A DNA stretch of 33,425 bases, taken from an uncultured Coriobacteriaceae bacterium (GTDB taxonomy: Bacteria > Actinomycetota > Coriobacteriia > Coriobacteriales > Eggerthellaceae). A model generated the notes under the pieces. It was not told the origin of the DNA. It did no database searches and was given only the letters and a program-made list of their open reading frames with translations. The stretch spans positions 1 through 33,425 of the forward strand of contig CAMORQ010000001.1 in NCBI GenBank assembly GCA_946623915.1, read 5' to 3'. Of this stretch, positions 2,155 through 26,324 are shown in pieces (positions within the stretch are counted from its first letter, which is position 1; the number at the start of each line of letters is the position of its first letter). The position numbers and the translations under genes are program-made.

Positions 2155-2358
2155 CACGCAAGGTAGGCACTCGGCCTGGTTTGCGTGCACAAGAGGAATC
2201 GAGCCCATCCTTATTCTGCAAGGGCTTGTGGAGACCGTTTCCGTTTCTGCGTCTTAAGAGGATGTGGGTCTCCGTGCGCCAGTTCTTCATGTTGGTGCAT
2301 TCAGAAATAGACAATGCGTCTATATGCGACGCATGAATCGTGTAAGGGGACGATTAAA

Positions 2359-5379: not shown

Positions 5380-5423
5380 TGCGACAGAATCAGCATGTTG
5401 CTGTCATATCGGGGAGGAATCCG

Positions 5424-8581: not shown

Positions 8582-8695
8582 GACGGAAGGGCGCCACGGA
8601 GCAGGCCGAAGGGTTTGGATGCCTCGACAGCATCGGCAAGCAGGTCTTCAAAAGTCCCCGGACATGCTCCAGGCGTCTTCAACGAAAGGACAGCA

Positions 8696-10624
8696 ATGAC
8701 CGACCAAGTGCAACCGAACCTTGTTTTAGGCACTGCCGGGCATATTGATCACGGCAAGTCGTCCCTTATCATGGCGCTTACTGGGACAAACCCCGACCGC
8801 CTAGTCGAAGAGCGCAAGCGCGGCATCACCATTGAGCTGGGTTTCGCGCGCCTCGACCTGGGCGACGGCCGCTCTATGGGCGTGGTCGATGTTCCAGGCC
8901 ACGAGAAATTTGTGCGCCAGATGATTGCCGGTGCTACCGGCATCGATGTGGCGCTGCTTGTCATAGCGGCCGATGACGGCATCATGCCCCAAACGCTCGA
9001 GCACATCGCCGTGCTGCAAACCCTCGGTGTGCCCACCTGCGTGGTCGCGTTGACCAAAATCGATTTGGTCGATGCAGACTGGGTGGGTTTGGCGAAAGAC
9101 GAAATCCACGCGTTTTTGGCCACTACGCCGTATGCCGACGCGCCCATCGTCCCTGTGTCGTCCCGCACGGGCGAAGGTGTGGAAGATGTCAGGGCGGCCC
9201 TCGCCGAAGCCAGCAAGCACGCAACCGCACTGCACCGGTCGACTGCGCTGCGTCAGCCGGTCGATCGTGTGTTTACCATCAAGGGCGCTGGAACGGTTAT
9301 CACCGGAACGCTGTGGAGCGGCACGGCACACGTGGGCGATAGCGTGGAAGTGCTTCCGAGCGGCAAGCTAAGTCGCATTCGTTCCATACAGATGCATGAT
9401 CAGCCAGTTGAAGAGGCGCCGGCGGGAAACCGTGTCGCCTTGAACCTGAGCGATGTGAAAACCGACGAAATAGCTCCTGGCGATTTCCTTGCAACACCGG
9501 GCCTTATTCAGCCCACGCAGGCTTTCGATGCCCAATTCACCTATCTCGACACGGCAAAATCGGGCAAACCGCTTGAGAGCGGCGTGCGTATGCACATAGC
9601 CCACGGCACTAAAGAGGTGCTTGGCCGCGTGCTGTTCGCCGATGGGCTCGAATCCCTCGCGCCTGGACAGACGTCGTTGGCGCAGATTCGTCTGGAAGAG
9701 CCGCTTCCCGTCTCGATGGGCGACCGTTTCATTGTGCGGACGTACTCGCCAGTGTTCGTGGCAGGTGGAGGGCAGGTGCTTATGACACACCCGCGCATGC
9801 GCACGACGCTCTACGGCGATGCCGAGGTGCTCGAAGCCCTTGCTGCAGGTGATTTGCAAAAAGCATGCGAGTTGGCGCTTGAGGCGCAAGGTGCTCCTGT
9901 CACTGCTGATCAGCTCGCGCATTTGTTTGGCACCGACCCGGCGCTTGTGGGCGAGTGCTTGCAGGCTGCGGTGACCAACGGCAGCGCACTGATGCTCGGG
10001 GGATCGAGCAGCTATTTCACGACCGAGTCGGGACGCCAGCACGCCCTTGCCGTGCTCGAGACGGCCCTGAAGGACTTCCATGCTGCCGAACCGTCCAAGA
10101 TGGGTCTTCCAAAAGAAGAACTGCGACAGCAAGTGTTCCCGCGGATGGACGCAGCATGCCTGGATCTGCTGCTTGGCGAAGCACAGGCAGCCAACATCGT
10201 TGCCGAGAGCGCCGGGCTAGTGGGCCATGCGTCGTCGCAAGGTGCTGCACAGCAGGCCGAAATCGATGCTGCCGAAGTAGTGCTGAAAGCGCTTTCCGCA
10301 GCGGGCCTCGTGCCGCCAGACGTGAAGGAGCTAGCCGCAGAAGTGGGGTTGGACCAATCCCTCGTGCGCCGTGCTCTTGCGCGCCTGCGCGACGAAGGCC
10401 GCGTGTGGCGACTGAACACCGAAACCTTCTATGATGCCGAGCAAATCGACGCATGCCGTGAACGCATCCGCGCGCATCTATCCGCAGGCGGTGACGGCAC
10501 CATGGCAGGCCTGAAAGAGGTAATGCAGCCAGGCATCAGCCGCAAATACGCCATGCCCCTGCTAGAAGCCTTCGATGCCGAGGGCCTCACCGTCCGCGAA
10601 GGCGACGCCCGCGTCCTAAAGTAG
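8696..10624 (+). CDS. selB: selenocysteine-specific translation elongation factor
   Basis: GTPase G1-G4 motifs (GTAGHIDHGKSSL, DVPGHEKF, LTKIDL) followed by a long winged-helix C-terminal extension. ATG 8696 with GAAAGGA upstream gives the canonical short N-terminus. The track start 8615 adds an implausible extension. Confidence 0.92.
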   Translation: MTDQVQPNLVLGTAGHIDHGKSSLIMALTGTNPDRLVEERKRGITIELGFARLDLGDGRSMGVVDVPGHEKFVRQMIAGATGIDVALLVIAADDGIMPQTLEHIAVLQTLGVPTCVVALTKIDLVDADWVGLAKDEIHAFLATTPYADAPIVPVSSRTGEGVEDVRAALAEASKHATALHRSTALRQPVDRVFTIKGAGTVITGTLWSGTAHVGDSVEVLPSGKLSRIRSIQMHDQPVEEAPAGNRVALNLSDVKTDEIAPGDFLATPGLIQPTQAFDAQFTYLDTAKSGKPLESGVRMHIAHGTKEVLGRVLFADGLESLAPGQTSLAQIRLEEPLPVSMGDRFIVRTYSPVFVAGGGQVLMTHPRMRTTLYGDAEVLEALAAGDLQKACELALEAQGAPVTADQLAHLFGTDPALVGECLQAAVTNGSALMLGGSSSYFTTESGRQHALAVLETALKDFHAAEPSKMGLPKEELRQQVFPRMDAACLDLLLGEAQAANIVAESAGLVGHASSQGAAQQAEIDAAEVVLKALSAAGLVPPDVKELAAEVGLDQSLVRRALARLRDEGRVWRLNTETFYDAEQIDACRERIRAHLSAGGDGTMAGLKEVMQPGISRKYAMPLLEAFDAEGLTVREGDARVLK

Positions 10625-10844: not shown

Positions 10845-10904
10845 GTTTTGTCTAGCCCGCAGAATGCGGGCGGTGGGCATGGTCGAAGAGTCAGCGAAAG
10901 CGGC

Positions 10905-10992
10905 GGAGACACCCATAATTGCCCCGCCCGCGCACCGAGCGTACTTCGCTACGCGCAAGAGTGCGCGACAAGGGGCAAGGATGGGTGTCTCC
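10905..10992. other. 88-nt rod-like imperfect hairpin (four nested helices)
   Basis: Pairings: GGAGACACCCA (10905..10915) with TGGGTGTCTCC (10982..10992); TTGCCCC (10919..10925) with GGGGCAA (10972..10978); GCGCAC (10930..10935) with GTGCGC (10961..10966); GCGTA (10939..10943) with TACGC (10950..10954). Confidence 0.55.
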
Positions 10993-11046
10993 GTCGCTTG
11001 CAGCGTCGGCCGAAGGCGCCGTTCGCTCCCGCGAACGGCGCAGCGG

Positions 11047-11967
11047 TTAGGCGGGGCCCAGAGCCGGCTCGTCTTCAGAGATTTGCGCGCGGTATTCGCT
11101 GGGTGTTACGCCGCGTTGCTGTTTGAAGATCTTGTTGAAGTAGCTGTGGTCGGAAAAGCCGACCTCGTGGCAGATGTCGCCAATGCTTTTGTCGGTGTCG
11201 GCAAGCATCTTCGCCGCTAGGTTGATGCGAAGCCCGTTCACGTAGCTGCGGAACGGCGTGTTGAATTGGTTCGAGAAGATGCGACTGACATAAGAAGGAT
11301 GAACGTAGACGTGCTTGGCAACCATGTCGAGCGACATTTCGTTGTCCGTGAAGTTGTTGACCACAAACTCCTGCACCGAGCACACGATGTCGTCATCGGT
11401 ATCGCCCTCGAAACGATTGCTTGCGATATCGGCGTCCATGCTCAGAGACTTGAATACCAGGTTTTCATCGGTGACCAGCGCGTTGATAACCTTCGCGATA
11501 GTCATGATCGACGAAATGTTGCCTTTAGGCAGATTGTCCAGGTACTCCTTCAGCTCGTCTAGCTTTTGAGCGTCGGCGCCTTGCGAAAGGAAGCCATGGC
11601 GCAAGAGCAGCTCGTCGGATTCTGCGGTCATGATGGGGCCAATTTGCAGTGCCGCAACGTATGTACCGTTCTCGTAAGCGGGGACGATAATGTTGGTGAG
11701 GCCGTGCGGGCAGTTGTAGACCGCGAACGTTTCCTTGTTTACGTCCTTAGAAATATCTTCGCAACGCGTAAAGAAATGGTCGATGCTGTTGGTTTTGCCG
11801 GTGATGTCTTCCATGCGCTTGCAGAAGCATTTCCCCAAATGGTTAGGAGGAAGCTCGAGAGAAATCTGGGATTCGGGTCCTACGAGAACGCAGTCGTATC
11901 CGAGGACATTGCTTACCAGGTACGCACATGCGTACAGGCTTTCAACCATTGACAAGGAAGAAGGCAT
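11047..11967 (-). CDS. AraC-family transcriptional regulator with N-terminal PocR-type sensor domain
   Basis: The C-terminus has the AraC double HTH (VAKHVYVHPSYVSRIFSNQF...GFSDHSYFNKIFKQQRGVTPSEYR). The N-terminal ~170 aa look PocR-like (NCPHGLTNIIVPAYENGTYVAALQIGPI). AAGGTGG lies 5 nt before the ATG. The gene is divergent from the BCCT/MttB cluster. Confidence 0.85.
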   Translation of the reverse strand: MPSSLSMVESLYACAYLVSNVLGYDCVLVGPESQISLELPPNHLGKCFCKRMEDITGKTNSIDHFFTRCEDISKDVNKETFAVYNCPHGLTNIIVPAYENGTYVAALQIGPIMTAESDELLLRHGFLSQGADAQKLDELKEYLDNLPKGNISSIMTIAKVINALVTDENLVFKSLSMDADIASNRFEGDTDDDIVCSVQEFVVNNFTDNEMSLDMVAKHVYVHPSYVSRIFSNQFNTPFRSYVNGLRINLAAKMLADTDKSIGDICHEVGFSDHSYFNKIFKQQRGVTPSEYRAQISEDEPALGPA

Positions 11968-12366: not shown

Positions 12367-12555
12367 GTTCGGTAGGAATCTTTTGCACTTATCGCGAATA
12401 TGCATGCCGCGGCAAATTAATTCTCAAAAGAGCCAAGTGCACTAGCCCGTGAATTCCTATCTTACGCGACACCGTTTCGGTATCGTCTAAAGACGTCTCG
12501 CACGTGAATACATCTGTTGGGGTGCGAGTACGCTTCGTCAGAGAAGGGGGATGCA

Positions 12556-14136
12556 ATGGACGACAAAACCAATGGGCAAAGCCAATCAAAGTTTTGGAAC
12601 CCGGTGTTCATCATTTCTTTGGCCATTTCGCTGGTCATTGTGGTGTGGGCAGTAGGTTTCAACGAGAATTTCTCGGTGGTGTCCAACGAAATTCTGAACT
12701 TCCTTGAAGTGAACTTCGGTTGGCTCTACCTGCTTTCGGTGCTGGCATTCGTGTTCTTCAGCATTGCCATCGCCGCAAGCAAGTACGGCAAGATCAAGCT
12801 GGGACCCGACGACTCCGAACCGGAATACAGCACCATTTCCTGGTTTGCGATGCTGTTCGGCTGCGGCATGGGCATCGGCCTTATCTTCTGGGGCCTGTCC
12901 GAGCCGATTTGCCATTTCGCGGCGCCAATGGCCGGCATCGACCCCGGTACTGACGCTGCAGCGATGTTCGCCATGCGCTCGACGTTTATGGACTGGGGTT
13001 TCCACGCTTGGGCAATCTTCTGCGTTATGGGTCTGGGACTGGCCTACGTAAGCTTCCGCCTGGGTAAACCGCAGCTGGTGAGCGCCGTGCTCGAACCCCT
13101 GATCGGCGAAAAGAACGCTAAGGGCTGGCTGGGCAAATTGGTCGACATCCTAGCTATCTTCGCTACGGTGTGCGGTATCGTTACCTCGCTCGGTTTGGGC
13201 ACCATGCAGATCGGCGCCGGTCTCGAGCATATGACTAATGGCGCTATTCCTAACACGCTCGTAACTCTAGTTGCTATCGTGGTGATCATCTCGGTCGTGT
13301 ACATCGGCACGGCTGTTATCGGCATCGACAAGGGCATCCAGACGGTCGGCAACATCAACCTGGTGCTTGCTGTTGCGCTGGTGGTGCTCTGCTTCGTCCT
13401 GGGACCCTCTATTGACCAGCTGAACAACCTGGTCGGTGGCCTCGGTGCTTACTTCCAGAACTTCTTCCAGGATTCGCTGCTGCTTTCGGCCTACGGCGAC
13501 AATAGCTGGTCGCTTGGCTGGCGCGTGTTCTACTGGGCATGGTGGATCGCATGGGCTCCGTTCGTGGGCATGTTCATCGCCCGTATCTCCAAGGGCCGCA
13601 CCATCCGCGAGTTCGTCGCTGGCGTTATGCTGGTCCCCTCCATCGTGGCCATCGTTTGGTGCGCCGTTCTCGGTTCGATGGGCATCAGCCTGTGGAAGAA
13701 TGGCGTGTTCAGCTTCGAGCAGCTCGTGACGCTTTCCGGTACCCCCGAAGTGGCGCTGTTCGAAACATTTAGCCACTATCCGCTCGGCATCGTGATTTCT
13801 GTGATCGCCATCGTGTTGGTGTGCACCTTCTTCATCACGTCGGCAAACTCGGGCACCTTCGCACTTTCGATGCTGTCTTCTAACGGCGACCTGAATCCGT
13901 CCAAGACCAAGATGCTGTTCTGGGGCCTGGTTCAGTCCGCTCTGGCGATCGGCATGCTTATGGCCGGTGGTCTGAAGCCGCTGCAAACCATGTCAGTAGG
14001 CTCTGCCTTCCCGTTCATGTTCGTGCTTATCGCGGTGATGTTTGCCATACCCAAAGCGCTTGCCAGTGAGGATAAGGCGAAGGTGGGCAGTGCGGACAAC
14101 ATAGTCGAATTGCCCAGTCAGGTGCAAAACGAATAA
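12556..14136 (+). CDS. BCCT-family (betaine/carnitine/choline) transporter, paralog 2
   Basis: Same conserved blocks as 2359..3927. ATG 12556 is preceded by GAGAAGGGGGA. The track start TTG 12517 is less likely. Confidence 0.9.
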   Translation: MDDKTNGQSQSKFWNPVFIISLAISLVIVVWAVGFNENFSVVSNEILNFLEVNFGWLYLLSVLAFVFFSIAIAASKYGKIKLGPDDSEPEYSTISWFAMLFGCGMGIGLIFWGLSEPICHFAAPMAGIDPGTDAAAMFAMRSTFMDWGFHAWAIFCVMGLGLAYVSFRLGKPQLVSAVLEPLIGEKNAKGWLGKLVDILAIFATVCGIVTSLGLGTMQIGAGLEHMTNGAIPNTLVTLVAIVVIISVVYIGTAVIGIDKGIQTVGNINLVLAVALVVLCFVLGPSIDQLNNLVGGLGAYFQNFFQDSLLLSAYGDNSWSLGWRVFYWAWWIAWAPFVGMFIARISKGRTIREFVAGVMLVPSIVAIVWCAVLGSMGISLWKNGVFSFEQLVTLSGTPEVALFETFSHYPLGIVISVIAIVLVCTFFITSANSGTFALSMLSSNGDLNPSKTKMLFWGLVQSALAIGMLMAGGLKPLQTMSVGSAFPFMFVLIAVMFAIPKALASEDKAKVGSADNIVELPSQVQNE

Positions 14137-14147
14137 CTAGCCTTTAC

Positions 14148-14175
14148 GCGCGCGCCGGCTGCTACCGGCGCGCGC
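14148..14175 (+). other. perfect 11-bp GC hairpin GCGCGCGCCGG-ctgcta-CCGGCGCGCGC (no T tract)
   Basis: Lies 12 nt after the BCCT stop codon and can be read directly. Confidence 0.6.
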
Positions 14176-14224
14176 AGACGCCGCCTGCGTCGGGCATGGG
14201 CGCAGGATCGGTAGTGCAGAAAAG

Positions 14225-14271
14225 ACCGCAGAGCGAATGTGCACCCTTTTTCGCTCCGCGGTTTTTCTTTT
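14225..14271 (+). terminator. rho-independent terminator after BCCT gene 2
   Basis: ACCGCAGAGCGAA (14225..14237) pairs with TTCGCTCCGCGGT (14250..14262) with one mismatch, followed by TTTTTCTTTT. Confidence 0.75.
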
Positions 14272-14468
14272 GTGTGGACTCGCAGACTAGGCGCGCTGAT
14301 ACGGCTCGCGCAGCACTCGTCTTTCCCCACGCAACACTCAAGAGCAAGCATGCTGGTGAAAATAATGACCGTGATAATAATACAAAACACCAGTTCAAGT
14401 GCACATCAAAAAATTCATAGAGTTTTGTTGTCAGAGGTGCCCTTTTTAATTTTTCGCAATTTCGAATT

Positions 14469-14489
14469 CCTATTAATACTGGTAATAGG
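14469..14489. promoter_or_regulatory. inverted repeat CCTATTA-N7-TAATAGG in the AT-rich region upstream of the corrinoid-protein gene (candidate operator/promoter region)
   Basis: Perfect 7-bp arms, 57 nt upstream of ATG 14546. The region contains TAATAC/TAATAG -10-like hexamers. Confidence 0.3.
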
Positions 14490-14545
14490 CGCGTAATGTG
14501 CATGCCATGGAATATCCCGTCAATCGAGGAACAAGGAGGTTTTCC

Positions 14546-15184
14546 ATGGCAACGATCGAAGATTTGGCACAAGCAGTATTTGATGGAAGCACGAGTAAGG
14601 CAAAGAAGCTCAGCCAGGAGCTGATCGACGACGGTATGGCGCCACTCGACGTTATCAACCAGGGTCTGATTGCTGGCATGAGCGAAGTTGGCGCCCAGTT
14701 TAAGGCCGGCACGATGTTCGTGCCCGACATGATGGCAGCGGCCGAAGCGATGACCGCTGGCACCGAAGTCGTCAAGCCGCTTCTGGCCGCCGACGACATG
14801 CAGTCGCTGGGCACCGTGTTCATCTGCACGGTTAAGGGCGACCTGCACGACATCGGCAAGAACTTGGTCGTTATGATGCTCGAGTCCGCTGGCTTCAACG
14901 TGATCAACGCCGGCGTCGACGTGTCTCCCGAAGACATCGTTGCGGGCGTCAAAGAGCATCACCCCGACATCATTGGCATGTCCGCGCTGCTGACCACCAC
15001 GATGCTCCACATGAAGGACACCATCGAGCTCCTGAAGGAAGAAGGCCTGCGTGACCAGGTGAAGGTCATCATCGGTGGCGCTCCCGTTTCTCAGGACTTC
15101 GCGGATGAAATCTCCGCCGACGGCTATTCGCCCGACGCTGTTTCCGCAGCCGATCTGGCCAAGTCCCTCGTCGGTGCCGCATAA
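14546..15184 (+). CDS. cobalamin-binding corrinoid protein of a methyltransferase system (MttC/MtgC/MtqC-like)
   Basis: Carries the B12-binding signature DxHxxG (GDLHDIGKNLV), SALLTTT and IIGGAP, with an N-terminal helical cap domain. ATG 14546 is preceded by AAGGAGG. Confidence 0.9.
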   Translation: MATIEDLAQAVFDGSTSKAKKLSQELIDDGMAPLDVINQGLIAGMSEVGAQFKAGTMFVPDMMAAAEAMTAGTEVVKPLLAADDMQSLGTVFICTVKGDLHDIGKNLVVMMLESAGFNVINAGVDVSPEDIVAGVKEHHPDIIGMSALLTTTMLHMKDTIELLKEEGLRDQVKVIIGGAPVSQDFADEISADGYSPDAVSAADLAKSLVGAA

Positions 15185-15225
15185 GGCATTGGTATCAGTA
15201 CGTCCGATTTTAAGGAGGACCCAGA

Positions 15226-16689
15226 GTGTATAGGACGAGAAGTTTGTACACCACCGCTGGTTTCACCGTTAACCAGCACCTGTTTTGGGAAATGCTGACC
15301 GACGACCAGGCAGAAGCCATCGTCAGCCGTACGCTTGAATTGCTCGAGCGCACGGGCATCGACATCCTCAGCGAAGATGCCGCGAAGACGCTCAAGGAAG
15401 CTGGCTGCCACGTCGACGGCAACCGGGTTCGCATCCCCACCGCCAAGTCCGAGTGGGCTCTGCGCTGCGCTCCTTCCCGCGTGACCCTGTGCGATCGCAA
15501 TGGCAACCGCGCCATGCTGCTCGAAAACAACGAAGCCCACTGGGGTCCTGGCTACACCGCCAAGGAGTTCATGGAGCAAGAGCAGAACATGGACACCAAC
15601 AACAACAAGATTCGTCCGTTCACCATTGCCGACGTTGAAATGTACGGCAAGCTGTGCGACACGCTTCCCAACATCAGCTTCGCCATGCCTGGCGGCTTCC
15701 CCACCGACGTTGACGAAGCCAACGCTGAAGTTGAAGTTTTCAAGACGCTGGTCAAGGCCACGCGTAAGCCCATCGTGCAGAACGTGAAGAACGTCGACCA
15801 GGCCAAGAAGATTATCGAGATGGCTGCCGCCATCGCTGGCTCTCCCGAAAAGCTGGCCATCGACCCGTTCGTGGCCCTGCATGTCGTCGTGAACGAGCCG
15901 CTGCAGATTTCTGCCGAAGCTGCCGATGTGGTTGCTTTCGCTGCTGGTCACGGCCTGCCCATTATCGTTTCCAACGAACTGGTCTCCGGCTTCACCGCTC
16001 CGGCCGAAAGCGCTGGCGTGCTGATGGTGGCTCTGGCCAACTCGATCGCCACGCTGCTCATCGCTCAGCTCGCATGCGAAGGCGCCTCCTTCATCACGGG
16101 TGGCTTCTTCACCAACAACGACACCGTCAACGAGCTGCATCCGTACGGCTCCCCCGAGATCAGCCTCCTCGGTGGCGGCTATGCCAACGTGCTCCGCACG
16201 CTGCGCATCCCGTCGTTCGGCTTCGCTGGCGGCACCGACGCGAAGTGCTCCGACGCCCAGATGGGCCTGGAAGTGGCTCTGTCCACGCTGTGCTCCGGCA
16301 TTTCCGGCACCAACGTCATCCATGGCGCTGGCAACTTCGAGTCCGGCTGCGTATCCAACCCGACGGTTCTCGTGCTCGCCGACGAAATCGCTTGCGAGAC
16401 GAAGCGCATCATGCGCGGCGTCGAAATGGACGAAGACCGTCTGGCCCGCGGCGTTATCGAAGAAGTGAAGCCTGCTGGTAACTACCTTGCTACCAAGCAC
16501 ACCCGTTACTACTTCCGCAGCGAGCAGTTCTGGCCCACGCTGATGAACCGCAAGCGTATCGACGACTGGGCGGCCGAAGGCTCTCTGACCCTTGGTGAGC
16601 GCACGGTCAACAAGATGAACGACCTGCTGGTCAACTATGAGGAAACCCCTCTGCCTGAAGGCGTTGACCTTGACAAGATCGCTGGTTAG
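15226..16689 (+). CDS. MttB-family (trimethylamine methyltransferase superfamily) methyltransferase, non-pyrrolysine type. Probable quaternary-amine:corrinoid methyltransferase; substrate unknown.
   Basis: 487 aa with MttB-family length and N-terminal pattern (LELLERTGIDILSEDAAKTLKEAGCHVDG). There is no in-frame TAG. GTG 15226 follows AAGGAGGA. It lies directly after the corrinoid protein gene. Confidence 0.85.
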   Translation: MYRTRSLYTTAGFTVNQHLFWEMLTDDQAEAIVSRTLELLERTGIDILSEDAAKTLKEAGCHVDGNRVRIPTAKSEWALRCAPSRVTLCDRNGNRAMLLENNEAHWGPGYTAKEFMEQEQNMDTNNNKIRPFTIADVEMYGKLCDTLPNISFAMPGGFPTDVDEANAEVEVFKTLVKATRKPIVQNVKNVDQAKKIIEMAAAIAGSPEKLAIDPFVALHVVVNEPLQISAEAADVVAFAAGHGLPIIVSNELVSGFTAPAESAGVLMVALANSIATLLIAQLACEGASFITGGFFTNNDTVNELHPYGSPEISLLGGGYANVLRTLRIPSFGFAGGTDAKCSDAQMGLEVALSTLCSGISGTNVIHGAGNFESGCVSNPTVLVLADEIACETKRIMRGVEMDEDRLARGVIEEVKPAGNYLATKHTRYYFRSEQFWPTLMNRKRIDDWAAEGSLTLGERTVNKMNDLLVNYEETPLPEGVDLDKIAG

Positions 16690-16713
16690 AGCGAGTAAGG
16701 AGAGGAAGTCGAG

Positions 16714-18195
16714 ATGAGAACTAATCTACGCGCCAACACGGCCGTCAAGATGAATGTCTTTACCGAGCAGCAGTGTCAAGAACTGGTGTTCGCAGCAGAA
16801 GAAGCCATGTGGCTCACCGGTACCGAGTTCCACGATCCCGAGTCCATCGAGATTCTGCGCAAAGCCGGCTGCACGATTGACGGCATCATCGCCCACATCC
16901 CACCGCATATTACCGAGCGCGCACTGCAGACATGCCAGAAGCACATCGTGCTGTGCAATTCCCGCACGGGCGCACGCGAGTTGTTCCTCGAAGGCGGTAA
17001 TTCCTACTTCGGCTCGGGCCCGTGCACCCCGTTTACCCGCAACCCCTACACCGAAGAGCGCCATCGCGCCACTCGTGAAAGCGTTAAGTGGGCTACCAAG
17101 GTCCTCGACGCCCTGCCCAACATCGACTATGCCATGTCGCTGGGCATCGTGCAGGACGTGCCGCTGCTGCTTTCGGACCGTCATGAATTCGAGCAGATGA
17201 TCCTGAACACCGACAAGCCGATCATCACCGTGTGCAACGACCAGTACGGCCAGGAAGACAACATCAAGATGGCCGAGTACATCGCTGGTGGCGAAGAAGA
17301 GCTGCGCAACCATCCGTTCATCTGCCTGTATGCAGAGCCCATTTCCCCGGGCGTCCACTGCATCGAGGCTGCTCAGAAGATGGTGTACGGTGCTCGCAAG
17401 GGTCTGCCCACGATTTACACGCCTTGCATCATGGCTGGCGGCACCGCTCCGGCAACGCTGGCTGGCGTTATGGTCCAGGGTCTGTGCGAATCTCTGTCCG
17501 GTCTGGTACTGGGTCAGTGCGCCGCCGAAGGTTCCCCGTTCATCATGGGCGGTGTGTACACGGTGCTCGACATGGGTTCGACGATCTTCAGCTACGGTGC
17601 TCCCGAGCTCGACCTGATGCTCGCCGGCCTGGCCGACGTGGCTCACTACCTGAAGGTTCCTATGTTCGGTACCGCTGGCTGCACCGACACCTGCGTCATC
17701 GACGAGCAGGCGGGCGTGGAAGCTGCGCTGTCCATGGCTATGACCAACATGTCTGGCGCGAACCTGAACCACGACACCGGTTACGCCGAGTACGGCACCA
17801 CCTCCAACCTCGACCTGGTTGTTATCGCTGACGAGGTTCTGGGTATGGCTCGCCGCATCACCGCTGGCATTCAGACCACCGAAGAAACCCTGTCCCTCAA
17901 AGAGATCGAGAAGGTCGGTCCTGGCGGTCGCTTCCGTGCAGCCGACATCCCCGAGCCCGAGGAAGAGGGCGTCTTCGAGCCCAAGAACTCCCGTGTCGAT
18001 TACCAGGCACGTCTGGTCAACCGCGGCGCGCGCGAGATCTGGGAAAAGGCCGGTGGCAAGACCCTCAAGCAGGCTGCCAACGAGAAGGTTCGCGACATCA
18101 TCGAGAACCACGAGGCCGAGCCGCTGCCCAAGGCGACTGCTGCCAAGATCCGCGAAATGGTCGAAAACGCAGTCGGCCATATGCCGGGCGAATAA
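16714..18195 (+). CDS. second, divergent MttB-family non-pyrrolysine methyltransferase; substrate unknown
   Basis: 493 aa with the same family pattern (GTEFHDPESIEILRKAGCTIDG). There is no in-frame TAG. ATG 16714 follows AAGGAGAGGAAG, 24 nt after the previous stop. Confidence 0.85.
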   Translation: MRTNLRANTAVKMNVFTEQQCQELVFAAEEAMWLTGTEFHDPESIEILRKAGCTIDGIIAHIPPHITERALQTCQKHIVLCNSRTGARELFLEGGNSYFGSGPCTPFTRNPYTEERHRATRESVKWATKVLDALPNIDYAMSLGIVQDVPLLLSDRHEFEQMILNTDKPIITVCNDQYGQEDNIKMAEYIAGGEEELRNHPFICLYAEPISPGVHCIEAAQKMVYGARKGLPTIYTPCIMAGGTAPATLAGVMVQGLCESLSGLVLGQCAAEGSPFIMGGVYTVLDMGSTIFSYGAPELDLMLAGLADVAHYLKVPMFGTAGCTDTCVIDEQAGVEAALSMAMTNMSGANLNHDTGYAEYGTTSNLDLVVIADEVLGMARRITAGIQTTEETLSLKEIEKVGPGGRFRAADIPEPEEEGVFEPKNSRVDYQARLVNRGAREIWEKAGGKTLKQAANEKVRDIIENHEAEPLPKATAAKIREMVENAVGHMPGE

Positions 18196-18309
18196 GCTTG
18201 CAGCCCCTGCGCACTAAGCGCACGCAAGAAGCTTAAAGACATAGCGCGGGAGGGCTGCCTACATGGCAACTCTCCCGTGCGCAGTAGGTTAAAGGGGGGC
18301 AAAGGGAAC

Positions 18310-20349
18310 ATGTCTCTAGTTCTAGGAATCGATACGGGCGGCACCTATACTGACGGCGTGGTGTTCGACCGGGTAAGTCGCAAAGTGCTTGCCAAAGCGA
18401 AGAGCCGTACAACCCGCGAAGATTTAAGCATCGGTATCACAGGCGTCATTGACGCGGTTCAGTTCGACGAGCTGGACAAGATCGAAGTCGTGTCAATGTC
18501 CACCACGTTGGCCACAAACGCCATCGTGGAAGGTGCTGGCTGCGAAGTGGGTCTGTTGCTGTTGGGTTACTACCCCGATGATTCATGGGATGTTCCGGCG
18601 GCAGCGGTCTGCACAATCCCGGGCGGTCACAACGTCAAAGGACAAGCGAAAGAGCCCTTCGACGACGATGCATGCAGGGAAGCGCTCGAATCCATGCGCG
18701 GCGCTGTGGACGCGGTGGCCATCTCCGGCTACTTAAGCGTGCGCAATCCCGAGCATGAAGTGCGCGCAAAAGAGCTGGTCAAGGAAGTATTGGACGTGCC
18801 GACCGTGTGCGCGCACGACCTTACGCGTTCTTTGGGTATCTACGAGCGCACGACTACGGCCGTTCTCAATGCAAAGCTCATGCCCATCATCGCGAACCTG
18901 CTTAAGGCGGTGCGTGCATCGCTGGATCGCAAGAAGATCAAAGCGCCCATCATGGTGGTGCGCGGCGATGGCACGCTCATCGGTGAAGAGAAGGCAAAGG
19001 ACAAGCCGATCGAAACCATGCTTTCCGGCCCGGCCGCGAGCATCATCGGCGCCTCGTTCCTTTCCGACGAATCGGACGCGTTCGTGTTCGACATGGGCGG
19101 TACCACGTCCGACGTGGCTGTGGTCAAGGACGGCATTCCGCGCATCGACGAAGAAGGCGCTTTTGTCGGCGGCTTCTTAACGCGCGTGAAAGCGGCTGCC
19201 ATTTCCACGTTCGGTCTTGGCGGCGACAGCTACATCTGGATGGATATGGAACGTCGATTGAACGTTGGCCCGCAGCGTGTTATCCCCATTGCGGTGGCAG
19301 TTTCGGAGTTCCCGTATCTGTATCGTGAACTCGAAAAAGTGAACGTGCCTTACGGCTACCTGCTGAACTACTGCCAGGTGGTAGACTGTTTCCGCATCAA
19401 CAACACCAACGCGACTGCGGTGTTCAACGAAATGGAGAAGCGCATCCTTTCCGCTCTCGAAGACGGACCGCACAACGTGTTCGAAATCTCCGAGCGCCTT
19501 GACACGCTTCCGAACATGATGAACTTCGACCGTTTGGTCAGTGCGGGCGTCCTCGGCCGCATTTCGGTTACGCCGACCGACTTGCTGCACGCCGACGGCA
19601 CGTTGGATTTGTGGGACAGCAAGGCATCCAAGCTGGCGGTTGGCTTGCTCGCCAAGCGCTTCAACAAGCAGGCAGAGGATTTCCTGGAAGAGGCGAAAGA
19701 CCGCGTGGTCGACGAGCTGTGCTACGCAAGCGTGCAGAGCCTGGTTAACTACGAGGGCGGCGGGTTCGATTTGAAGACAGACCCGGGTGCTGCATTCTTC
19801 TTCAAGAAGCAGCTGCATCCGTCGGAAAACAGTTACCTGTCGGCAAATGTGAATCCTGCCATCCCGCTTATCGGCGTGGGTGCGCCCATTGCGAACTGGC
19901 TACCGCCGACAGCAGAGCGCATCGGGTGCAGGCTGATCGTGCCCGAAAACGCCGAAGTGGCCAACGCCATCGGTTCTGCAGTTGGTCGCGTCATGGAGTC
20001 GGTGAAGATCCTGGTTACCCCGGGCGACAACAACGATGGCTTCAACCTGCACTCTGCCTACGAGATGAAGTTCTTCGCAGACCTGGAAGAAGCTATCGCC
20101 TACGCCATGGAGTTCGCAGAGAACAAAGCGCGCGAAATCGCTCAGGAAAACGGTGTGGCCAATCCGGAAATCACCGTGAACCGCAACGACGTGCTCGCTG
20201 CATCGGGCGACGACGAGAGCGAAGGCGACATCTTCATCGAGTCGAACATCGAGGCGATCGCCACCGATACGCCCGAGTGGGAAACCGAGGAGCGCAAAGA
20301 GCACTTCTTCGTGGACACCCGCGGACGCGGCATGACGATGGACGACTAG
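18310..20349 (+). CDS. hydantoinase/oxoprolinase (HyuA-like, ASKHA-fold) family protein
   Basis: The N-terminus LGIDTGGTYTDGVV is the hydantoinase_A N-domain phosphate-1 motif, and a second ATPase motif (FDMGGTTSDVAV) is present. About 680 aa with no Cys cluster. ATG 18310 follows AAAGGGGGGCAAAGGGA. Confidence 0.75.
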   Translation: MSLVLGIDTGGTYTDGVVFDRVSRKVLAKAKSRTTREDLSIGITGVIDAVQFDELDKIEVVSMSTTLATNAIVEGAGCEVGLLLLGYYPDDSWDVPAAAVCTIPGGHNVKGQAKEPFDDDACREALESMRGAVDAVAISGYLSVRNPEHEVRAKELVKEVLDVPTVCAHDLTRSLGIYERTTTAVLNAKLMPIIANLLKAVRASLDRKKIKAPIMVVRGDGTLIGEEKAKDKPIETMLSGPAASIIGASFLSDESDAFVFDMGGTTSDVAVVKDGIPRIDEEGAFVGGFLTRVKAAAISTFGLGGDSYIWMDMERRLNVGPQRVIPIAVAVSEFPYLYRELEKVNVPYGYLLNYCQVVDCFRINNTNATAVFNEMEKRILSALEDGPHNVFEISERLDTLPNMMNFDRLVSAGVLGRISVTPTDLLHADGTLDLWDSKASKLAVGLLAKRFNKQAEDFLEEAKDRVVDELCYASVQSLVNYEGGGFDLKTDPGAAFFFKKQLHPSENSYLSANVNPAIPLIGVGAPIANWLPPTAERIGCRLIVPENAEVANAIGSAVGRVMESVKILVTPGDNNDGFNLHSAYEMKFFADLEEAIAYAMEFAENKAREIAQENGVANPEITVNRNDVLAASGDDESEGDIFIESNIEAIATDTPEWETEERKEHFFVDTRGRGMTMDD

Positions 20350-20433
20350 GGCTTGCTGCGCTGCCCATCGACAAGAGTGCGGCGCATTTTGATAAACAAC
20401 GGTATGCAACAACAAAAAGAAAGGTAACCACAC

Positions 20434-21249
20434 ATGAGTTTTATCATCATTGCTGAAAAGATCAACGGTTCCGTGCCCCGGACCAAGGAAGCCATTGACG
20501 CTCGCGATGCCGATTACATTCGCCAGATCGCCAAGGCTCAGGCTGATGCTGGCGCCACCTACATCGACGTGAACGCCGGCGTCGAGCCTTCCGAAGAGCA
20601 CGAGGTCATGGAATGGCTGATCGACCTGGTCCAGGAAGTCACCGACACCCCGCTGTGCATCGACAGCGCCGACCCTCAGGTTATGGTCGACATGATGCCG
20701 AAGGCCAACAAGGTTGGCTGCCTGAACTCCGTCAACATGGAAGGCGACAAGTGCGACATCGTGTTCCCGGCCATTGCAGGAACCGACTGGTACGTCGTTG
20801 CCCTTACCTGCGACGAAGAGGGCATCCCCACCGATCCGCAGAAGAAGTTCGAAATCGCCAAGGCAATCATCGCCAAGGCCGACGAATACGGCGTAGACCA
20901 CGAAAAGATTCTGTTCGATCCGCTGGTCACCACGCTCGGCACCAACCAGGATTCCTTCGTGCAGTTCACCGAAGCCACGAAGATGATCAAGGAAGCATGG
21001 CCCGATGTTCACATCACTTCCGGCCTTTCCAACATCAGCTTCGGCCTGCCGAGCCGCAAGACCATCAACATGCAGTTCCTGGCTTTGGCCATGTACGACG
21101 GCATGGACAGCGCCATCATGGACCCGACGTCTCGCGACATGATGGGCGCCATGTTTGCCACGCAGGCCCTGATGGGCGAGGACCCGTTCTGCAAGGATTA
21201 CTTGACTGGCTTCCGCAACGACCTGTTCGGTCCGAAGAAGGAAGCATAA
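20434..21249 (+). CDS. pterin-binding methyltransferase (methylcorrinoid:tetrahydrofolate methyltransferase, MtgA/MtqA/AcsE-like)
   Basis: 271 aa DHPS-like TIM-barrel pattern (IIAEKINGS, YIDVNAG, PLCIDS, SGLSNISFGLP), typical of methyl-THF:corrinoid methyltransferases. Confidence 0.85.
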   Translation: MSFIIIAEKINGSVPRTKEAIDARDADYIRQIAKAQADAGATYIDVNAGVEPSEEHEVMEWLIDLVQEVTDTPLCIDSADPQVMVDMMPKANKVGCLNSVNMEGDKCDIVFPAIAGTDWYVVALTCDEEGIPTDPQKKFEIAKAIIAKADEYGVDHEKILFDPLVTTLGTNQDSFVQFTEATKMIKEAWPDVHITSGLSNISFGLPSRKTINMQFLALAMYDGMDSAIMDPTSRDMMGAMFATQALMGEDPFCKDYLTGFRNDLFGPKKEA

Positions 21250-21295
21250 GGGCGCAAAGCATTTGTACCCGTTTCGAGCTCGCAAGGAGGCTGTC

Positions 21296-21664
21296 ATGTT
21301 GGTAGTAACGAACAACCCGCTTCTCTGTTCCGAACCGAACGCGTTGTTCGTCGATGGCAGCTTCCGCGACGTGCTCGTGAAAGTACGGGACTTGGTGTAT
21401 TCAGGCTACGAGCTGGTCACGCATCCGTTGTTCGCCAGCTTAGGCATGATGTTCTCGCCCTATCGCACGGTAGTTTTGGGTGAGTCGTGCGGTAGGGCGA
21501 GCGACTACGAAATGGAGTTGGTCGAGAACGCCATTGTCACGTACGACCAGGCGACGGAAGGCCGCGTGCGTTTCGCAGAATACGACGAGGACTACGCCTG
21601 GATGGATAGGAGCCTGTACCAGTCTGCCCTGGAAGACCAGGGGCTGGTGCTTAACAGGTACTAG
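21296..21664 (+). CDS. grdX: GrdX-like glycine reductase complex-associated protein
   Basis: About 122 aa with N-terminal LVVTNNPLL and VRDLVYSGYELVTHPL...SPYRTVV, as recalled for GrdX proteins. It sits immediately upstream of a grdE-like gene, as in glycine reductase operons. ATG 21296 follows AAGGAGG. Confidence 0.65.
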   Translation: MLVVTNNPLLCSEPNALFVDGSFRDVLVKVRDLVYSGYELVTHPLFASLGMMFSPYRTVVLGESCGRASDYEMELVENAIVTYDQATEGRVRFAEYDEDYAWMDRSLYQSALEDQGLVLNRY

Positions 21665-21715
21665 GCAATAGGGAGAAGGGAAAAGAGTCGCGATAAGCGA
21701 ACGGAGGTGTTTTGA

Positions 21716-22999
21716 GTGAAGTTAGAACAAGGATTGGTTTACATTAAGGATGTCGTTGGCGGAAGCGAAAACTCCGTCAAGGACGGCGTTCTCACGGTCG
21801 ACGTCGAAGGATTGAAGGCGCATCTGCTCGAAGATCCGAAGGTCAAGGCCGTTGAGGTCGACTTCGCCAAGCCGGGGGATCACACACGCATCGTGCCGGT
21901 GAAGGACGTTATCGAGCCGCGGTTCAATTTCGACCGCGTCAACGGCTTCCCGGGCATGACGGTGAAGTACAACGAATGCGGCAACGGTCGCGTGAACGTG
22001 CTTCGCGGTGCTGCCGTGGTCACCATCGGTGATGCGGTGGGCTTCCAGGAAGGCGTCATCGACATGTGGGGCGAAGGTGCTCTCTGGACGCCGTTCTCCA
22101 AGACATACAACATCGTGGTTGACATCACGCCCATCGACGGCGTCGATCCGCATGAGCACGAGACCATCGTGCGCATGGCTGGTCTGCGTGCAGGCACCTA
22201 TGTGGGCTTGGCGGCAGAAAACGCCACAGTCGACGAAACCAAGGTGTGGGAGCTTGGCCCAGCGAAGGAAGAGAGCGAAAAGTATCCGGATCTTCCCAAG
22301 GTCGCCTATGTGCAGATGACCATCTCGCAGGGTTTGCTGCATGACGTGTACATGTATGGCGTGGACGTGAAGGAGATCATCCCCACATGGTTCCATCCCA
22401 ACGAGGAACTGGACAGCGCCATCGTGTCCGGTAACTGCGTGGCGGCATGCGACAAGATCACCACCTACCAGCATCAGACCAATCCGCTGACCGAAGACCT
22501 CTACGAGCAGCACGGCAAGACCATCAACTACATCGGCAACATCCTGTCGCCCGAACTGACCACGCTCGACGGCAAGTTCCGCAATTGCGACTACACCGCC
22601 AAGCTGTGCGAGCAGCTGGGTGCCGACGGCGTTATCGTGTCCGAGGAAGGCTACGGCAATCCCGACTCCGACCTCGTGATGATCTGCAAGCGCCTCGAGA
22701 ATCGCGGCATCAAGACCGCTCTCGTAACTGACGAGTGCTCCGGTTGGGACGGCACGAGCCAGCCCCTTACCGACACGGCACCTGAAGCCGTGGCTGTGGT
22801 TTCGTCGGGCAACGTGAGCAAGGTTATCGAGCTCGAGCCGGCTGACAAGGTGCTCGGCAATCTGAAGGCTGCCGAAACGGTGGCTGGCGGTTGGGCAGGA
22901 TGCGTCGGCGACGACGGCAGCTTGAAAGTCGAGCTGAATGCCGTCATCGGTGCGACCTCTGAAATCGGTTATCACAACGCTTCCGTGAAGCTGTATTAA
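21716..22999 (+). CDS. grdE: glycine/sarcosine/betaine reductase component B alpha/beta proprotein (GrdE/GrdG-like, pyruvoyl type)
   Basis: 427 aa with the EEGYGNPDSD motif. An Asn240-Cys241 pair (22433..22438) lies at the position I recall for the GrdE self-cleavage site. GTG 21716 follows GGAGGTG at 6 nt. Selenoprotein B follows 16 nt downstream. Confidence 0.88.
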   Translation: MKLEQGLVYIKDVVGGSENSVKDGVLTVDVEGLKAHLLEDPKVKAVEVDFAKPGDHTRIVPVKDVIEPRFNFDRVNGFPGMTVKYNECGNGRVNVLRGAAVVTIGDAVGFQEGVIDMWGEGALWTPFSKTYNIVVDITPIDGVDPHEHETIVRMAGLRAGTYVGLAAENATVDETKVWELGPAKEESEKYPDLPKVAYVQMTISQGLLHDVYMYGVDVKEIIPTWFHPNEELDSAIVSGNCVAACDKITTYQHQTNPLTEDLYEQHGKTINYIGNILSPELTTLDGKFRNCDYTAKLCEQLGADGVIVSEEGYGNPDSDLVMICKRLENRGIKTALVTDECSGWDGTSQPLTDTAPEAVAVVSSGNVSKVIELEPADKVLGNLKAAETVAGGWAGCVGDDGSLKVELNAVIGATSEIGYHNASVKLY

Positions 23000-23015
23000 G
23001 AGAGGGGGATAAGGC

Positions 23016-24317
23016 ATGAGCAAGAAAGTTCTCTACTATCTGAACCAGTTCTTCGGCGGTATCGGCGGCGAAGACATGGCAGACTTCGAGCCCGAGTTCC
23101 GCGCAGGCGAACTTGTGGGTCCGGCGATGGGCATTAACGCCGCAGCAGGCGATGGGATCGAGGCTGTCGGTACGCTTATCTGCGGCGACAACTTCTTTGG
23201 AACGCACGAAGAAGAGGCCAAGGCTTTCATCGCGAAGGTTATCGAAGAGCAGCAGCCCGATATTCTGTGTGCTGGCCCTGCGTTCAACGCTGGTCGTTAT
23301 GGTTTTGCATGCGCTGGTGCGTGCGCAGTTGCCAATGAGGCAGGCGTCATTCCCGTCAGCGGCATGTACGAGGAAAATCCTGGCTTGGAGCATTGCCAGT
23401 CGTTCAGCTGGGTTGCAGCTACGGCTAACGCAGCTGCGCAGATGCGCAAGGCCATTCCCCTTATGGGCAACCTGATTGCCAAGCTGGCAGCGGGTGAAGA
23501 AGTGACGCCCGAAGATGATTCCTACTTCGCGCAGGGTCGTCGCGAGACGGTGCTCGTGGAAGACCGTGGGTCCAAGCGTGCGGTAGACATGCTGCTCGCC
23601 CGCCTGAACGACGAGGAGTTCGTAACCGAGCTGCCTATGCCTTCGTTCGACGAGGTCGAACCTGCTCCGCCGATTGCCGACCTGACCAAGGCCACTATCG
23701 CGCTCGTTACGTCTGGCGGTATCGTCCCCAACGGCAACCCCGACCGCTTGCAGTCGGCATCTGCCCAGCAATGGAACAAGTACGACATCTCCGGTTACGA
23801 CGAGCTGAAGGGCGATTTCTACACGGTCCATGGTGGCTTCGACCCGGTGTACTGCAACGAAGACGCCGACCGCGTTCTTCCGCTCGACGCTTTGCGCGAG
23901 ATGGAAAAAGAAGGCAAGATCGGCAAAGTGTACGACTATATGTACACCACGACTGGCACGGGTACTGCGGTAGCCAACTCCATCCAGTTCGGCGAGGAAA
24001 TCGGTAAAGAACTGAAGGAGGCCGGTGTCGACGGCGTTCTACTCACCTCCACTTGAGGCACGTGCACACGTTGCGGTGCAACGATGGTTAAAGAAATCGA
24101 ACGCTACGGTATTCCGATCGTTCACATGGCCACGATTACAACGATTTCGTCGTCGGTTGGTGCTCGCCGTATTCTTCCGACGGTGGCCATTCCTTATCCC
24201 ACGGGTAACCCGAACCTGCCGGATGCAGAAGAGCATGAACTGCGTCAGAGCATGGTGGAGCGCGCCGTGAACGCTCTAGGCACCGAAATCGAGGACACCA
24301 CCGAATTCGAAGCGTAG
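23016..24317 (+). CDS. grdB: glycine/sarcosine/betaine reductase selenoprotein B family (GrdB/GrdF-like), with in-frame TGA (24054..24056) read as selenocysteine
   Basis: Track ORFs 23016..24056 and 24084..24317 share one frame. Read-through gives LTST-U-GTCTRCGATMV. The SECIS-like hairpin is the same as in the first copy. Confidence 0.9.
24069..24083 (+). promoter_or_regulatory. SECIS-like hairpin (CGTTGC-GGT-GCAACG) for TGA 24054..24056
   Basis: Identical sequence and spacing (13 nt) to 1848..1862. Confidence 0.7.
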
Positions 24318-24348
24318 TGCAAGAGCGTGTCGGACTGAACCCATCTTG

Positions 24349-24388
24349 CGGCGCCTCGGCTATGTGAAGCCGGGGCGCCGTTGCTTTG
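24349..24388 (+). terminator. rho-independent terminator after selenoprotein B gene 2
   Basis: CGGCGCCTCGGCT-atgtga-AGCCGGGGCGCCG (one T-G pair) followed by TTGCTTTG. Confidence 0.6.
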
Positions 24389-24511: not shown

Positions 24512-24608
24512 GGAGTCGGATGGGTCCTGGTGGGTCCCGCGGCCTTCAAAGCCGTTGTGAGGCGAGCAGAACGTCTCGGGTGTGTTCGATTCGCACACGA
24601 CTCCGCCA
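24512..24608 (+). tRNA. selC: tRNA-Sec (anticodon UCA), 97 nt with encoded CCA
   Basis: Hand-folded cloverleaf. Acceptor: GGAGTCG (24512..24518) with CGACTCC (24598..24604), discriminator G, CCA at 24606..24608. D arm: 6 bp plus a 4-nt loop, GGGTCC-TGGT-GGGTCC (24522..24537, two G-U pairs). Anticodon arm: GCGGC-CTTCAAA-GCCGT with TCA at 24546..24548. Long variable arm: GAGGCG-AGCAGAA-CGTCTC (24559..24577). T arm: GTGTG-TTCGATT-CGCAC (24580..24596). The 6-bp D stem with 4-nt D loop, the long variable arm and the UCA anticodon are tRNA-Sec hallmarks. Confidence 0.85.
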
Positions 24609-26256: not shown

Positions 26257-26324
26257 ATGCAAACTATAGCATGCGCCATGGTCGCAGGCGTCATGCTTGG
26301 CGAAAACCTTGTGGCGATAAAGTC

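Follow-up and report, generated by a model that had tools for sequence, protein, structure and literature searches.

The stretch of DNA analysed here (the window) comprises 33,425 nucleotides from an uncultured Coriobacteriaceae bacterium (GTDB family Eggerthellaceae; GenBank assembly GCA_946623915.1, contig CAMORQ010000001.1, positions 1 to 33,425). Between positions 14546 and 24317 of its forward strand, genes of a corrinoid-dependent demethylation module are followed directly by grdX, grdE and grdB, which encode component B of a selenium-dependent reductase (Grd). A previous interpretation made from the letters alone (the sequence-only reading) had counted nine co-directional genes. The co-directional run stands, and all named genes were confirmed at their coordinates with Pfam and NCBIfam; the number of genes is eight, nine being reached only if GrdB is split at its in-frame UGA. 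The genes are spaced by 16-114 nt and follow one another in this order:

14546..15184, + strand: corrinoid protein with B12-binding_2 and B12-binding domains (Pfam) and the motif DLHDIG (DxHxxG); NCBIfam MtgC-like models give 198-212 bits, below their cut-offs
15226..16689, + strand: MttB-1, a methyltransferase I (MTI) of the MttB superfamily lacking pyrrolysine (non-Pyl); Pfam MTTB, 244 bits
16714..18195, + strand: MttB-2, a second and more conserved MttB paralogue; Pfam MTTB, 241 bits
18310..20349, + strand: hydantoinase-A/oxoprolinase-like ASKHA ATPase, with an alternative GTG start at 18277; Pfam Hydant_A_N and Hydantoinase_A
20434..21249, + strand: pterin-binding methyl-corrinoid:tetrahydrofolate (THF) methyltransferase (MTII); NCBIfam PRK07535, score 339 above the cut-off of 259; Pfam Pterin_bind
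21296..21664, + strand: GrdX, ATG at 21296; NCBIfam GrdX, score 99 above the cut-off of 40
21716..22999, + strand: GrdE-type component B proprotein, with the pyruvoyl-forming Cys241 at 22436-22438; Pfam Gly_reductase, 609 bits
23016..24317, + strand: GrdB-type selenoprotein B, with UGA (selenocysteine, Sec348) at 24057-24059; Pfam GRDB, 494 bits

The run is bracketed by two hairpins that had been read as terminators before. Both fold strongly, and in neither case did any of 200 shuffled sequences fold as well:

14216..14276, + strand: intrinsic-terminator-like hairpin with a T run after a BCCT transporter gene (BCCT #2); -25.6 kcal/mol, z -3.83
24348..24381, + strand: GC-rich terminator-like hairpin of 14 bp after grdB; -30.9 kcal/mol, z -4.19

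The earlier statement that no terminator lies inside the run also holds, since matches to the terminator consensus within the operon occurred at chance level (16 found, 12.5 ± 4.4 expected). A scan for sigma-70 promoters likewise gave no excess over chance (2 found, 4.9 expected). The corrinoid gene is preceded by an AT-rich leader of 270 nt after the BCCT #2 hairpin, and cobalamin and glycine riboswitches were sought in the leader regions and found neither at the gathering threshold nor at E≤1. The junction between MTII and grdX measures 46 nt, carries an AAGGAGG ribosome-binding site and is free of structure (z +0.66). The 321-nt region 5' of grdX in a relative without the module (L014, GrdE 92% identical) does not align with this short gap, nor with that of a metagenome-assembled genome (MAG) from roe deer (L005). 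On account of the junction's ribosome-binding site, its lack of a hairpin and this mismatch with L014, the methyltransferase half and grdXEB probably constitute one transcription unit. The gene order is identical on an independent scaffold (L001) and in L005, which comes from another host and shows 92-98% protein identity. An assembly chimera was ruled out, the MTII-grdX junction being common to the window and these two independent assemblies. The nearest proteins to those of the window belong to Eggerthellaceae MAGs. With moderate confidence, we interpret the region as a selenium-dependent island for the breakdown of betaine and N-methylglycines, in which the demethylated product would be passed to GrdX/GrdE/GrdB.

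The two MttB proteins, 32% identical to each other, cover PF06253 nearly over its full length. Their open reading frames (ORFs) are uninterrupted and hold no in-frame UAG, and in HMMER alignments to the pyrrolysine-containing MttB (PDB 7XCL) MttB-1 has Gly and MttB-2 has Cys in the pyrrolysine column; their earlier assignment as non-Pyl enzymes was thus borne out. Scores against MtgB (2QNE/9YCE) were 145-164 bits and against 7XCL 174-177 bits (MttB-1: 164 and 174, respectively), both proteins being about equally distant from the two references, and a genuine MtgB orthologue from Desulfosporosinus reaching 883 bits against 9YCE. The MtgB-like betaine chemistry of the sequence-only reading was not supported by this comparison, as neither protein keeps the betaine-binding residues of MtgB. 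By alignment mapping, the sites Y97/R312/H348/F356 correspond to Y/F/H/G in MttB-1 and to P/F/H/G in MttB-2. The R312 site is Phe in both proteins and in all homologues but one (Leu in the MttB-1-type protein of L080), as judged from an alignment at about 25-30% identity in which the local motif P-x-[R/F]-x-x-G-G is clear and which agrees with the HMMER alignments. This arginine is reported to be conserved in all characterised quaternary-amine members (PMC13080624); an aromatic residue at its position is found in both MttBs, as in Pyl-MttB. Orthologues of MttB-1 and MttB-2 always occur as an adjacent pair, nearly always together with the hydantoinase-like gene, and MttB-2 is 72-89% identical to its orthologues in other lineages, several Firmicutes among them. 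A scan of metagenome contigs with MttB-2 returned four loci, three on contigs shorter than 5 kb and the fourth a 35% match.

These features favour dimethylglycine and/or sarcosine as the MttB substrates and glycine as the product, and two loci from Firmicutes point the same way. In Desulfosporosinus, the MttB pair stands between grd and a true MtgB-MtgC-BCCT set, which would match the number of methyltransferases, three, to that of the methyl groups on betaine. In L090 (GCA_032941855.1, 3544-13706), a module with two MttB-2-type genes and one MttB-1-type gene is divergent from PocR/AraC-gcvT-gcvH-gcvPA-gcvPB-lplA, and these glycine-cleavage neighbours point to glycine as what the module produces. 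Glycine as the product would also fit the glycine-type affiliation of GrdEB set out below.

The sequence-only reading knew of no described operon that couples both systems. Such couplings have in fact been published for DCMF (PMC8163858, PMC9768040) and for Sporomusa sphaeroides KIAC (PMC12456013). DCMF ('Ca. Formimonas warabiya', Holland et al.) converts betaine into about 2.3 acetate and about 1 methylamine, grows on dimethylglycine, uses sarcosine only with H2 and cannot use trimethylamine (PMC8163858, PMC9768040). Its authors proposed stepwise demethylation followed by sarcosine reduction, a combination known earlier from Sporomusa, with surplus electrons going to CO2 reduction (PMC8163858, PMC9768040). 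By proteomics, a cluster of corrinoid proteins, MTIs, a hydantoinase-like protein of about 668 residues, MTII, MtgB and BCCT transporters was found, and a trxB-trxA-grdA-grdCD-grdGF cluster lies about 50 genes away from it, both being strongly induced by betaine (PMC8163858, PMC9768040). The first half of the methyltransferase cluster is syntenic in S. ovata and Ca. Frackibacter (PMC8163858, PMC9768040), and the predicted GrdGF has been reported to cluster with Sporomusa 'sarcosine reductase' genes. The window resembles DCMF in its implied chemistry (stepwise corrinoid demethylation by MttB-family enzymes, then Grd cleavage) and in combining a corrinoid protein, at least two MTIs, a hydantoinase-like gene, MTII and a BCCT transporter. 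It differs in that the DCMF reductase is remote and a true MtgB is present there; the best DCMF homologue of MttB-2 that was found is 55% identical and belongs to another cluster.

In S. sphaeroides KIAC, a betaine-induced 58-kb cluster (KIAC18_004056-004100) holds opuD, mtgABC, mttBC, grdABCDE, grdACDHI and sel genes (PMC12456013). With this strain, S. sphaeroides DSM 2875 (L087) and Sporomusa sp. KB1 (L081) the window shares a BCCT/OpuD transporter, MttBs with corrinoid proteins, the hydantoinase-like gene, component B genes (grdE/grdB and grdH/grdI) and selenocysteine genes; MttB-2 is 77-78% identical to the Sporomusa proteins, the corrinoid protein 64% and MttB-1 47%. The Sporomusa clusters place grdE-grdB ahead of the corrinoid and MttB genes, are under sigma-54-type regulation and belong to a Wood-Ljungdahl acetogen, whereas in the window grdXEB follow MTII in a compact operon with a PocR/AraC regulator, the host is an actinobacterium, and the island contains no grdA, grdC or grdD. 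The MtgB/MtgC/MtgA system of Desulfitobacterium hafniense and Acetobacterium woodii is similar in having an MttB-superfamily MTI, a DxHxxG corrinoid protein, a pterin-binding MTII and an adjacent BCCT gene; unlike there, however, the MttBs of the window are not MtgB orthologues (MttB-2 lacks three and MttB-1 two of the four residues that bind betaine), and the place taken in those clusters by a RACE/RamA-type activase is here occupied by a hydantoinase-like ATPase. No paper on this chemistry in Eggerthellaceae was found in the literature. The coupling of demethylation with Grd is already established in principle, and joining the two in one operon adds no new principle; what the window offers is a new, compact, independently assembled betaine-demethylation and Grd cluster in a new phylum.

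A purely redox coupling has to be weighed, in which the MttBs would demethylate some other amine (proline betaine, carnitine, choline derivatives or methylamines released by a reductase) and GrdXEB would reduce glycine from the environment, the two halves forming an electron donor/acceptor pair with no hand-off between them. The absence of both R312 and the MtgB aromatic cage from the two MttBs, together with the Pyl-MttB-like aromatic residue, agrees with this scheme, as does the fact that in relatives the GrdB orthologue is part of a regular glycine reductase locus, close to formate-dehydrogenase-like genes. The S. sphaeroides authors, moreover, label the neighbouring MttB genes trimethylamine methyltransferases (PMC12456013). 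The BCCT transporter and the betaine-induced homologous modules of DCMF and Sporomusa nevertheless point to substrates of the betaine family, DCMF is unable to use trimethylamine, and the arrangement in L090, where the module and the glycine cleavage genes share a regulator region, is hard to explain unless glycine is produced. We therefore consider a coupling by redox alone unlikely.

The features of component B that had been read from the sequence were upheld. GrdE contains Asn240-Cys241 at the predicted pyruvoyl-forming cleavage site, which matches the C. difficile protein, whose pyruvoyl peptide begins at residue 242 (PMC9908766). GrdB carries a UxxCxxC motif (TST-U-GTCTRCG), and a SECIS_4 element (Rfam) was detected on grdB at 24057-24094 with 55.5 bits (gathering score 38). 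GrdX, the Asn-Cys of GrdE, the Sec-x-x-Cys-x-x-Cys of GrdB and a SECIS element after the UGA are all shared with component B of Clostridium sticklandii, C. difficile and Eubacterium acidaminophilum; unlike in these clostridial systems, the genes of the window lie apart from grdA/grdC/grdD/trx and have been joined onto the end of a methyltransferase operon. On the substrate-specific NCBIfam models, GrdB scored 563 on GrdF (cut-off 800), 543 on GrdB (TIGR01917, cut-off 602) and 508 on GrdH (cut-off 775), and GrdE gave 495 bits on GrdG (cut-off 780). These models do not separate glycine from sarcosine: all glycine/sarcosine-type GrdBs scored gave the order GrdF > GrdB > GrdH and stayed below the GrdF and GrdH cut-offs, the GrdH-type protein at the left edge of the window being the sole departure from this pattern. 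Methyltransferase-adjacent proteins of Sporomusa and Desulfosporosinus also miss the GrdG/GrdF cut-offs (GrdE homologues 523-535 bits, GrdB of Sporomusa KB1 609 bits). Since Coriobacteriia orthologues of GrdB from L002 (beside trxB-trx-grdA-C-D) and from Adlercreutzia (L006) score alike on TIGR01917 (540-548), the low score of the window protein on this model reflects the divergence of the lineage; tree placement backs the orthology. In a neighbour-joining tree, which contains no biochemically characterised reference, GrdB of the window falls inside the Coriobacteriia clade as sister to the proteins of L002 and L009 that are encoded beside trxB-trx-grdA-grdC(-grdD), and the methyltransferase-adjacent GrdBs of Firmicutes form a separate clade; GrdG/GrdF of DCMF were not named among the top 120 matches to Sporomusa GrdE.

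The identity of GrdEB bears on another possible route, that of the DCMF model, which parts from the favoured one only in the last intermediate: the two MttBs would convert betaine via dimethylglycine into sarcosine and GrdEB would act as a sarcosine reductase, giving methylamine and acetyl phosphate. Two MttBs would suit two demethylations starting from betaine, the BCCT transporter is closest to models of betaine uptake, and the published DCMF data (about one methylamine formed from each betaine, strong induction of the predicted GrdGF) fit a hand-over of sarcosine. Yet GrdE and GrdB remain below the GrdG and GrdF cut-offs with a profile that ordinary glycine reductase GrdBs share, the window protein is orthologous to the GrdB of the relatives' core locus, the operon holds no MtgB orthologue and neither MttB has the betaine site, and the L090 module is flanked by glycine cleavage genes. 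A hand-over of sarcosine is for these reasons rather unlikely, without being far-fetched, and glycine stays the favoured product of the demethylation module.

Whether the adjacency of mttB and grd genes recurs elsewhere had been left to comparative genomics. It does recur, and is common, outside the family: six additional lineages of Firmicutes, namely Sporomusa sp. KB1, S. sphaeroides, Desulfosporosinus fructosivorans, a Dehalobacterium MAG, an Eubacteriales MAG and GCA_000802025, carry grd genes no more than 5 kb from orthologues of the MttB pair (MttB-2 76-79% identical), in three gene orders; three other module-bearing lineages show no grd within the sequence available. Among Coriobacteriia relatives, it was not found apart from this species. 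MttB-2 is 76-80% identical to its Firmicute orthologues vs 62-64% for GrdE. Because GrdB is the native, glycine-type orthologue of Coriobacteriia and MttB-2 is closer to Firmicutes than GrdE is, the linkage would have arisen independently here, most simply through insertion of a horizontally acquired module immediately 5' of a native grdXEB. Convergence of separate lineages on the same linkage is our best argument that the pairing of module and grd is probably functional.

The same distribution could also be read as accidental adjacency, an acquired module having landed beside housekeeping grdXEB in a selenium island with no functional or regulatory link between them. The limitation to one species within Coriobacteriia, the close relatives having either the module or grd and never both together, and the more Firmicute-like character of the module are in keeping with chance. 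The linkage in six other lineages with differing gene orders is not, nor is the 46-nt junction, which leaves little room for a grdX promoter and holds no terminator, and we regard mere accident as very improbable.

Several observations nevertheless weigh against a functional island with hand-over of the product. With Phe in place of R312 in both MttBs, the substrate could even be something other than a carboxylated amine, and no substrate-specific NCBIfam cut-off is reached by either GrdB or GrdE. Neither the window nor the 5 kb to its left contains grdA, grdC, grdD, trx or genes for the oxidation of methyl-THF. Within Coriobacteriia/Eggerthellaceae the fusion of module and grd is limited to this species, and the nearest relatives have one half or the other. 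The nearest module-bearing relative (L092/L093, MttB-2 89% identical) shows the order AraC-BCCT-corrinoid protein-MttB-MttB-hydantoinase-like-MTII as in the window, but there DUF1638 closes the cluster and grd is absent. The module in turn is missing from the nearest relatives that possess grd. It is also missing from those with GrdE 74-81% identical (L002-L013), in several of which grdXEB lie beside thioredoxin and grdA/grdC/grdD, with formate-dehydrogenase-like or selA/selB genes nearby.

The N-terminal half of the hydantoinase-like protein is an ASKHA ATPase as in oxoprolinase, hydantoinase A and acetone carboxylase. It also shows a weak match to MutL/GlmL, an accessory protein of B12 enzymes, and gave 96 bits with PDB 6YRA. 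Across eight lineages (homologues from L085, L087, L089, L090, L092, L094 and L096 plus the window), 219 of 679 residues are invariant, four scattered Cys among them; an Fe-S motif is not present in the protein. Its C-terminal approximately 350 residues matched no Pfam family, and an AlphaFold2 model from the single sequence was uninformative (mean pLDDT 34.6). No domain of a RamA/RACE-type activase was found among the scanned ORFs of the window; this conserved position is held by the hydantoinase-A-like gene instead. The gene stands at the place of the RACE activase in MtgB-type clusters. We infer an ATP-dependent activating role for its product, which would give a possible function to a protein that published work lists without one.

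To our knowledge, no enzyme has been assigned to the anaerobic demethylation of dimethylglycine or sarcosine. As a tentative proposal, less secure than that of the island as a whole, the trio of MttB-1-type protein, MttB-2-type protein and hydantoinase-like ATPase could be an anaerobic system that strips the methyl groups from two non-quaternary amines, dimethylglycine and sarcosine, to leave glycine. The proposal is based on MttBs that lack the quaternary-amine cage and Arg, on an ATPase that would substitute for a RamA-type activase, and on the repeated linkage of the trio to consumers of glycine, namely Grd (independently in Coriobacteriia and Firmicutes; three orders) and glycine cleavage (one lineage). 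The comparative pattern in this way supplies candidate enzymes for the step. Small proteins faintly like the MetH reactivation domain (Met_synt_B12) adjoin the module in L086 (11641-12297) and L096 (13577-14260), and DUF1638 proteins recur beside it in L086 (17634-19101) and L092 (14795-15463); both kinds may also assist the corrinoid system as accessory factors.

Immediately upstream of the operon, Pfam confirmed the BCCT transporter and the divergent PocR/AraC regulator of the sequence-only reading:

11047..11967, - strand: PocR-sensor/AraC-type regulator, divergent from BCCT #2; Pfam HTH_18, HTH_AraC and PocR
12517..14136, + strand: BCCT transporter #2, betaine-family uptake; Pfam BCCT 577 bits, NCBIfam betaine_BCCT 597, below the cut-off of 650

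A homologue of the regulator flanks the module in L085, L090, L092 and L094. The 10-mer GAATTCCTAT occurs at 12451-12460 (66 nt 5' of the BCCT #2 start) and at 14464-14473 (82 nt 5' of the corrinoid protein start); GAATTCCTAT might be a PocR/AraC operator, but with about 0.2 chance matches expected the pair is not significant alone and is not claimed as one.

Taken in sequence, the proposed pathway would run as follows. The PocR/AraC regulator would control uptake by BCCT #2 and expression of the eight-gene operon. The two MttBs would move N-methyl groups from a glycine-derived amine to the single corrinoid protein, from which MTII would pass them on to THF, the hydantoinase-like ATPase most likely keeping the system active by ATP-dependent activation of either the corrinoid or the substrate. 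The demethylated product (glycine being favoured, sarcosine the alternative) would be bound by the probably co-transcribed GrdX/GrdE/GrdB and cleaved reductively to acetyl phosphate, with GrdA, GrdCD and thioredoxin supplied from elsewhere in the genome. Oxidation of methyl-THF would provide the electrons. Oxidation of one methyl-THF to CO2 yields 6 electrons, and each Grd cleavage takes up 2. The internally balanced disproportionation of one substrate suggested before is therefore not attained, and an extra electron sink is needed: by our own arithmetic, the route from betaine via sarcosine to methylamine leaves 10 electrons per betaine. The obvious sink would be the probable betaine reductase component GrdI/GrdH at the left edge of the window, which has a BCCT transporter of its own. 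With betaine reductase as the sink, 6 betaine would give 5 trimethylamine, 1 methylamine (or ammonium), 6 acetyl phosphate and 2 CO2 (likewise our own calculation).

The sequence-only reading had looked to this left edge for grdA, grdC and grdD. The locus is most likely grdI-grdH instead, and the genes to its left are TrkH, a hypothetical gene and RsgA. The following genes were assigned there:

2..754, + strand: GrdI-like betaine reductase component B, C-terminal part, cut by the window edge; Pfam Gly_reductase, 284 bits
771..2102, + strand: GrdH-type selenoprotein B, UGA at 1836-1838; NCBIfam betaine_GrdH, 771.4 vs a cut-off of 775
2314..3927, + strand: BCCT transporter #1, adjoining grdIH; Pfam BCCT 611 bits, NCBIfam betaine_BCCT 634, below the cut-off of 650

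The full-length GrdI on L088 has 442 residues. GrdI reads SGSFMPAS where GrdE reads SGN-CVAAC, and so lacks the pyruvoyl-forming Cys. GrdH was scored with Cys substituted for Sec and misses the GrdH cut-off by less than 4 bits, its scores on the GrdF (568) and GrdB (494) models being far lower; in other respects the pair is consistent with betaine reductase. A SECIS_4 element on grdH (1836-1873) gave 52 bits (Rfam). The island thus contains two different component B sets together with selA, selB and selC, and it lacks grdA, grdCD and thioredoxin genes. Among the main sources of trimethylamine are betaine and its derivatives. This amine sustains rumen methanogens, and in humans it has been associated with cardiovascular risk. 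The island would pair a trimethylamine-forming route (GrdHI) with a trimethylamine-sparing one (demethylation) in an actinobacterium of the gut or rumen.

The machinery for selenocysteine is encoded on both sides of the operon:

7151..10624, + strand: selA and selB; Pfam SelA 466 bits, GTP_EFTU and SelB winged-helix domains
24512..24604, + strand: tRNA-Sec (selC), 190 nt after grdB; Rfam tRNA-Sec 69.6 bits, ARAGORN anticodon TCA

One island accordingly accommodates selA, selB, selC, two selenoprotein genes and two SECIS_4 elements, and no selD was noticed in the window. Between 10001 and 11000, the G+C content rises to 66% (57% for the whole window) over the 3' part of selB and a short ORF (10689-11126) with no Pfam match. 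Some Eggerthellaceae (L007, 6643-12402; L012; L013) possess a second, divergent grdE-grdB set, which is in tandem in L007, and component B has thus diversified within the family.

A tandem pair of DUF3841 genes accompanies Grd genes in the window (4762-5987), in L014 (155-1295) and in L088 (9473-10692). In L014, the pair is located directly 5' of grdX; in the window, LysR, selA, selB, AraC, BCCT and the methyltransferase module intervene, which suggests an insertion at that point. Downstream of the operon, on the - strand at 24625-27278, a protein of the sodium:dicarboxylate symporter family with an N-terminal extension of about 190 residues and an ADP-ribosylglycohydrolase are encoded, the listed ORFs overlapping by 25 nt, and the same pair is found 3' of grdB on L001.

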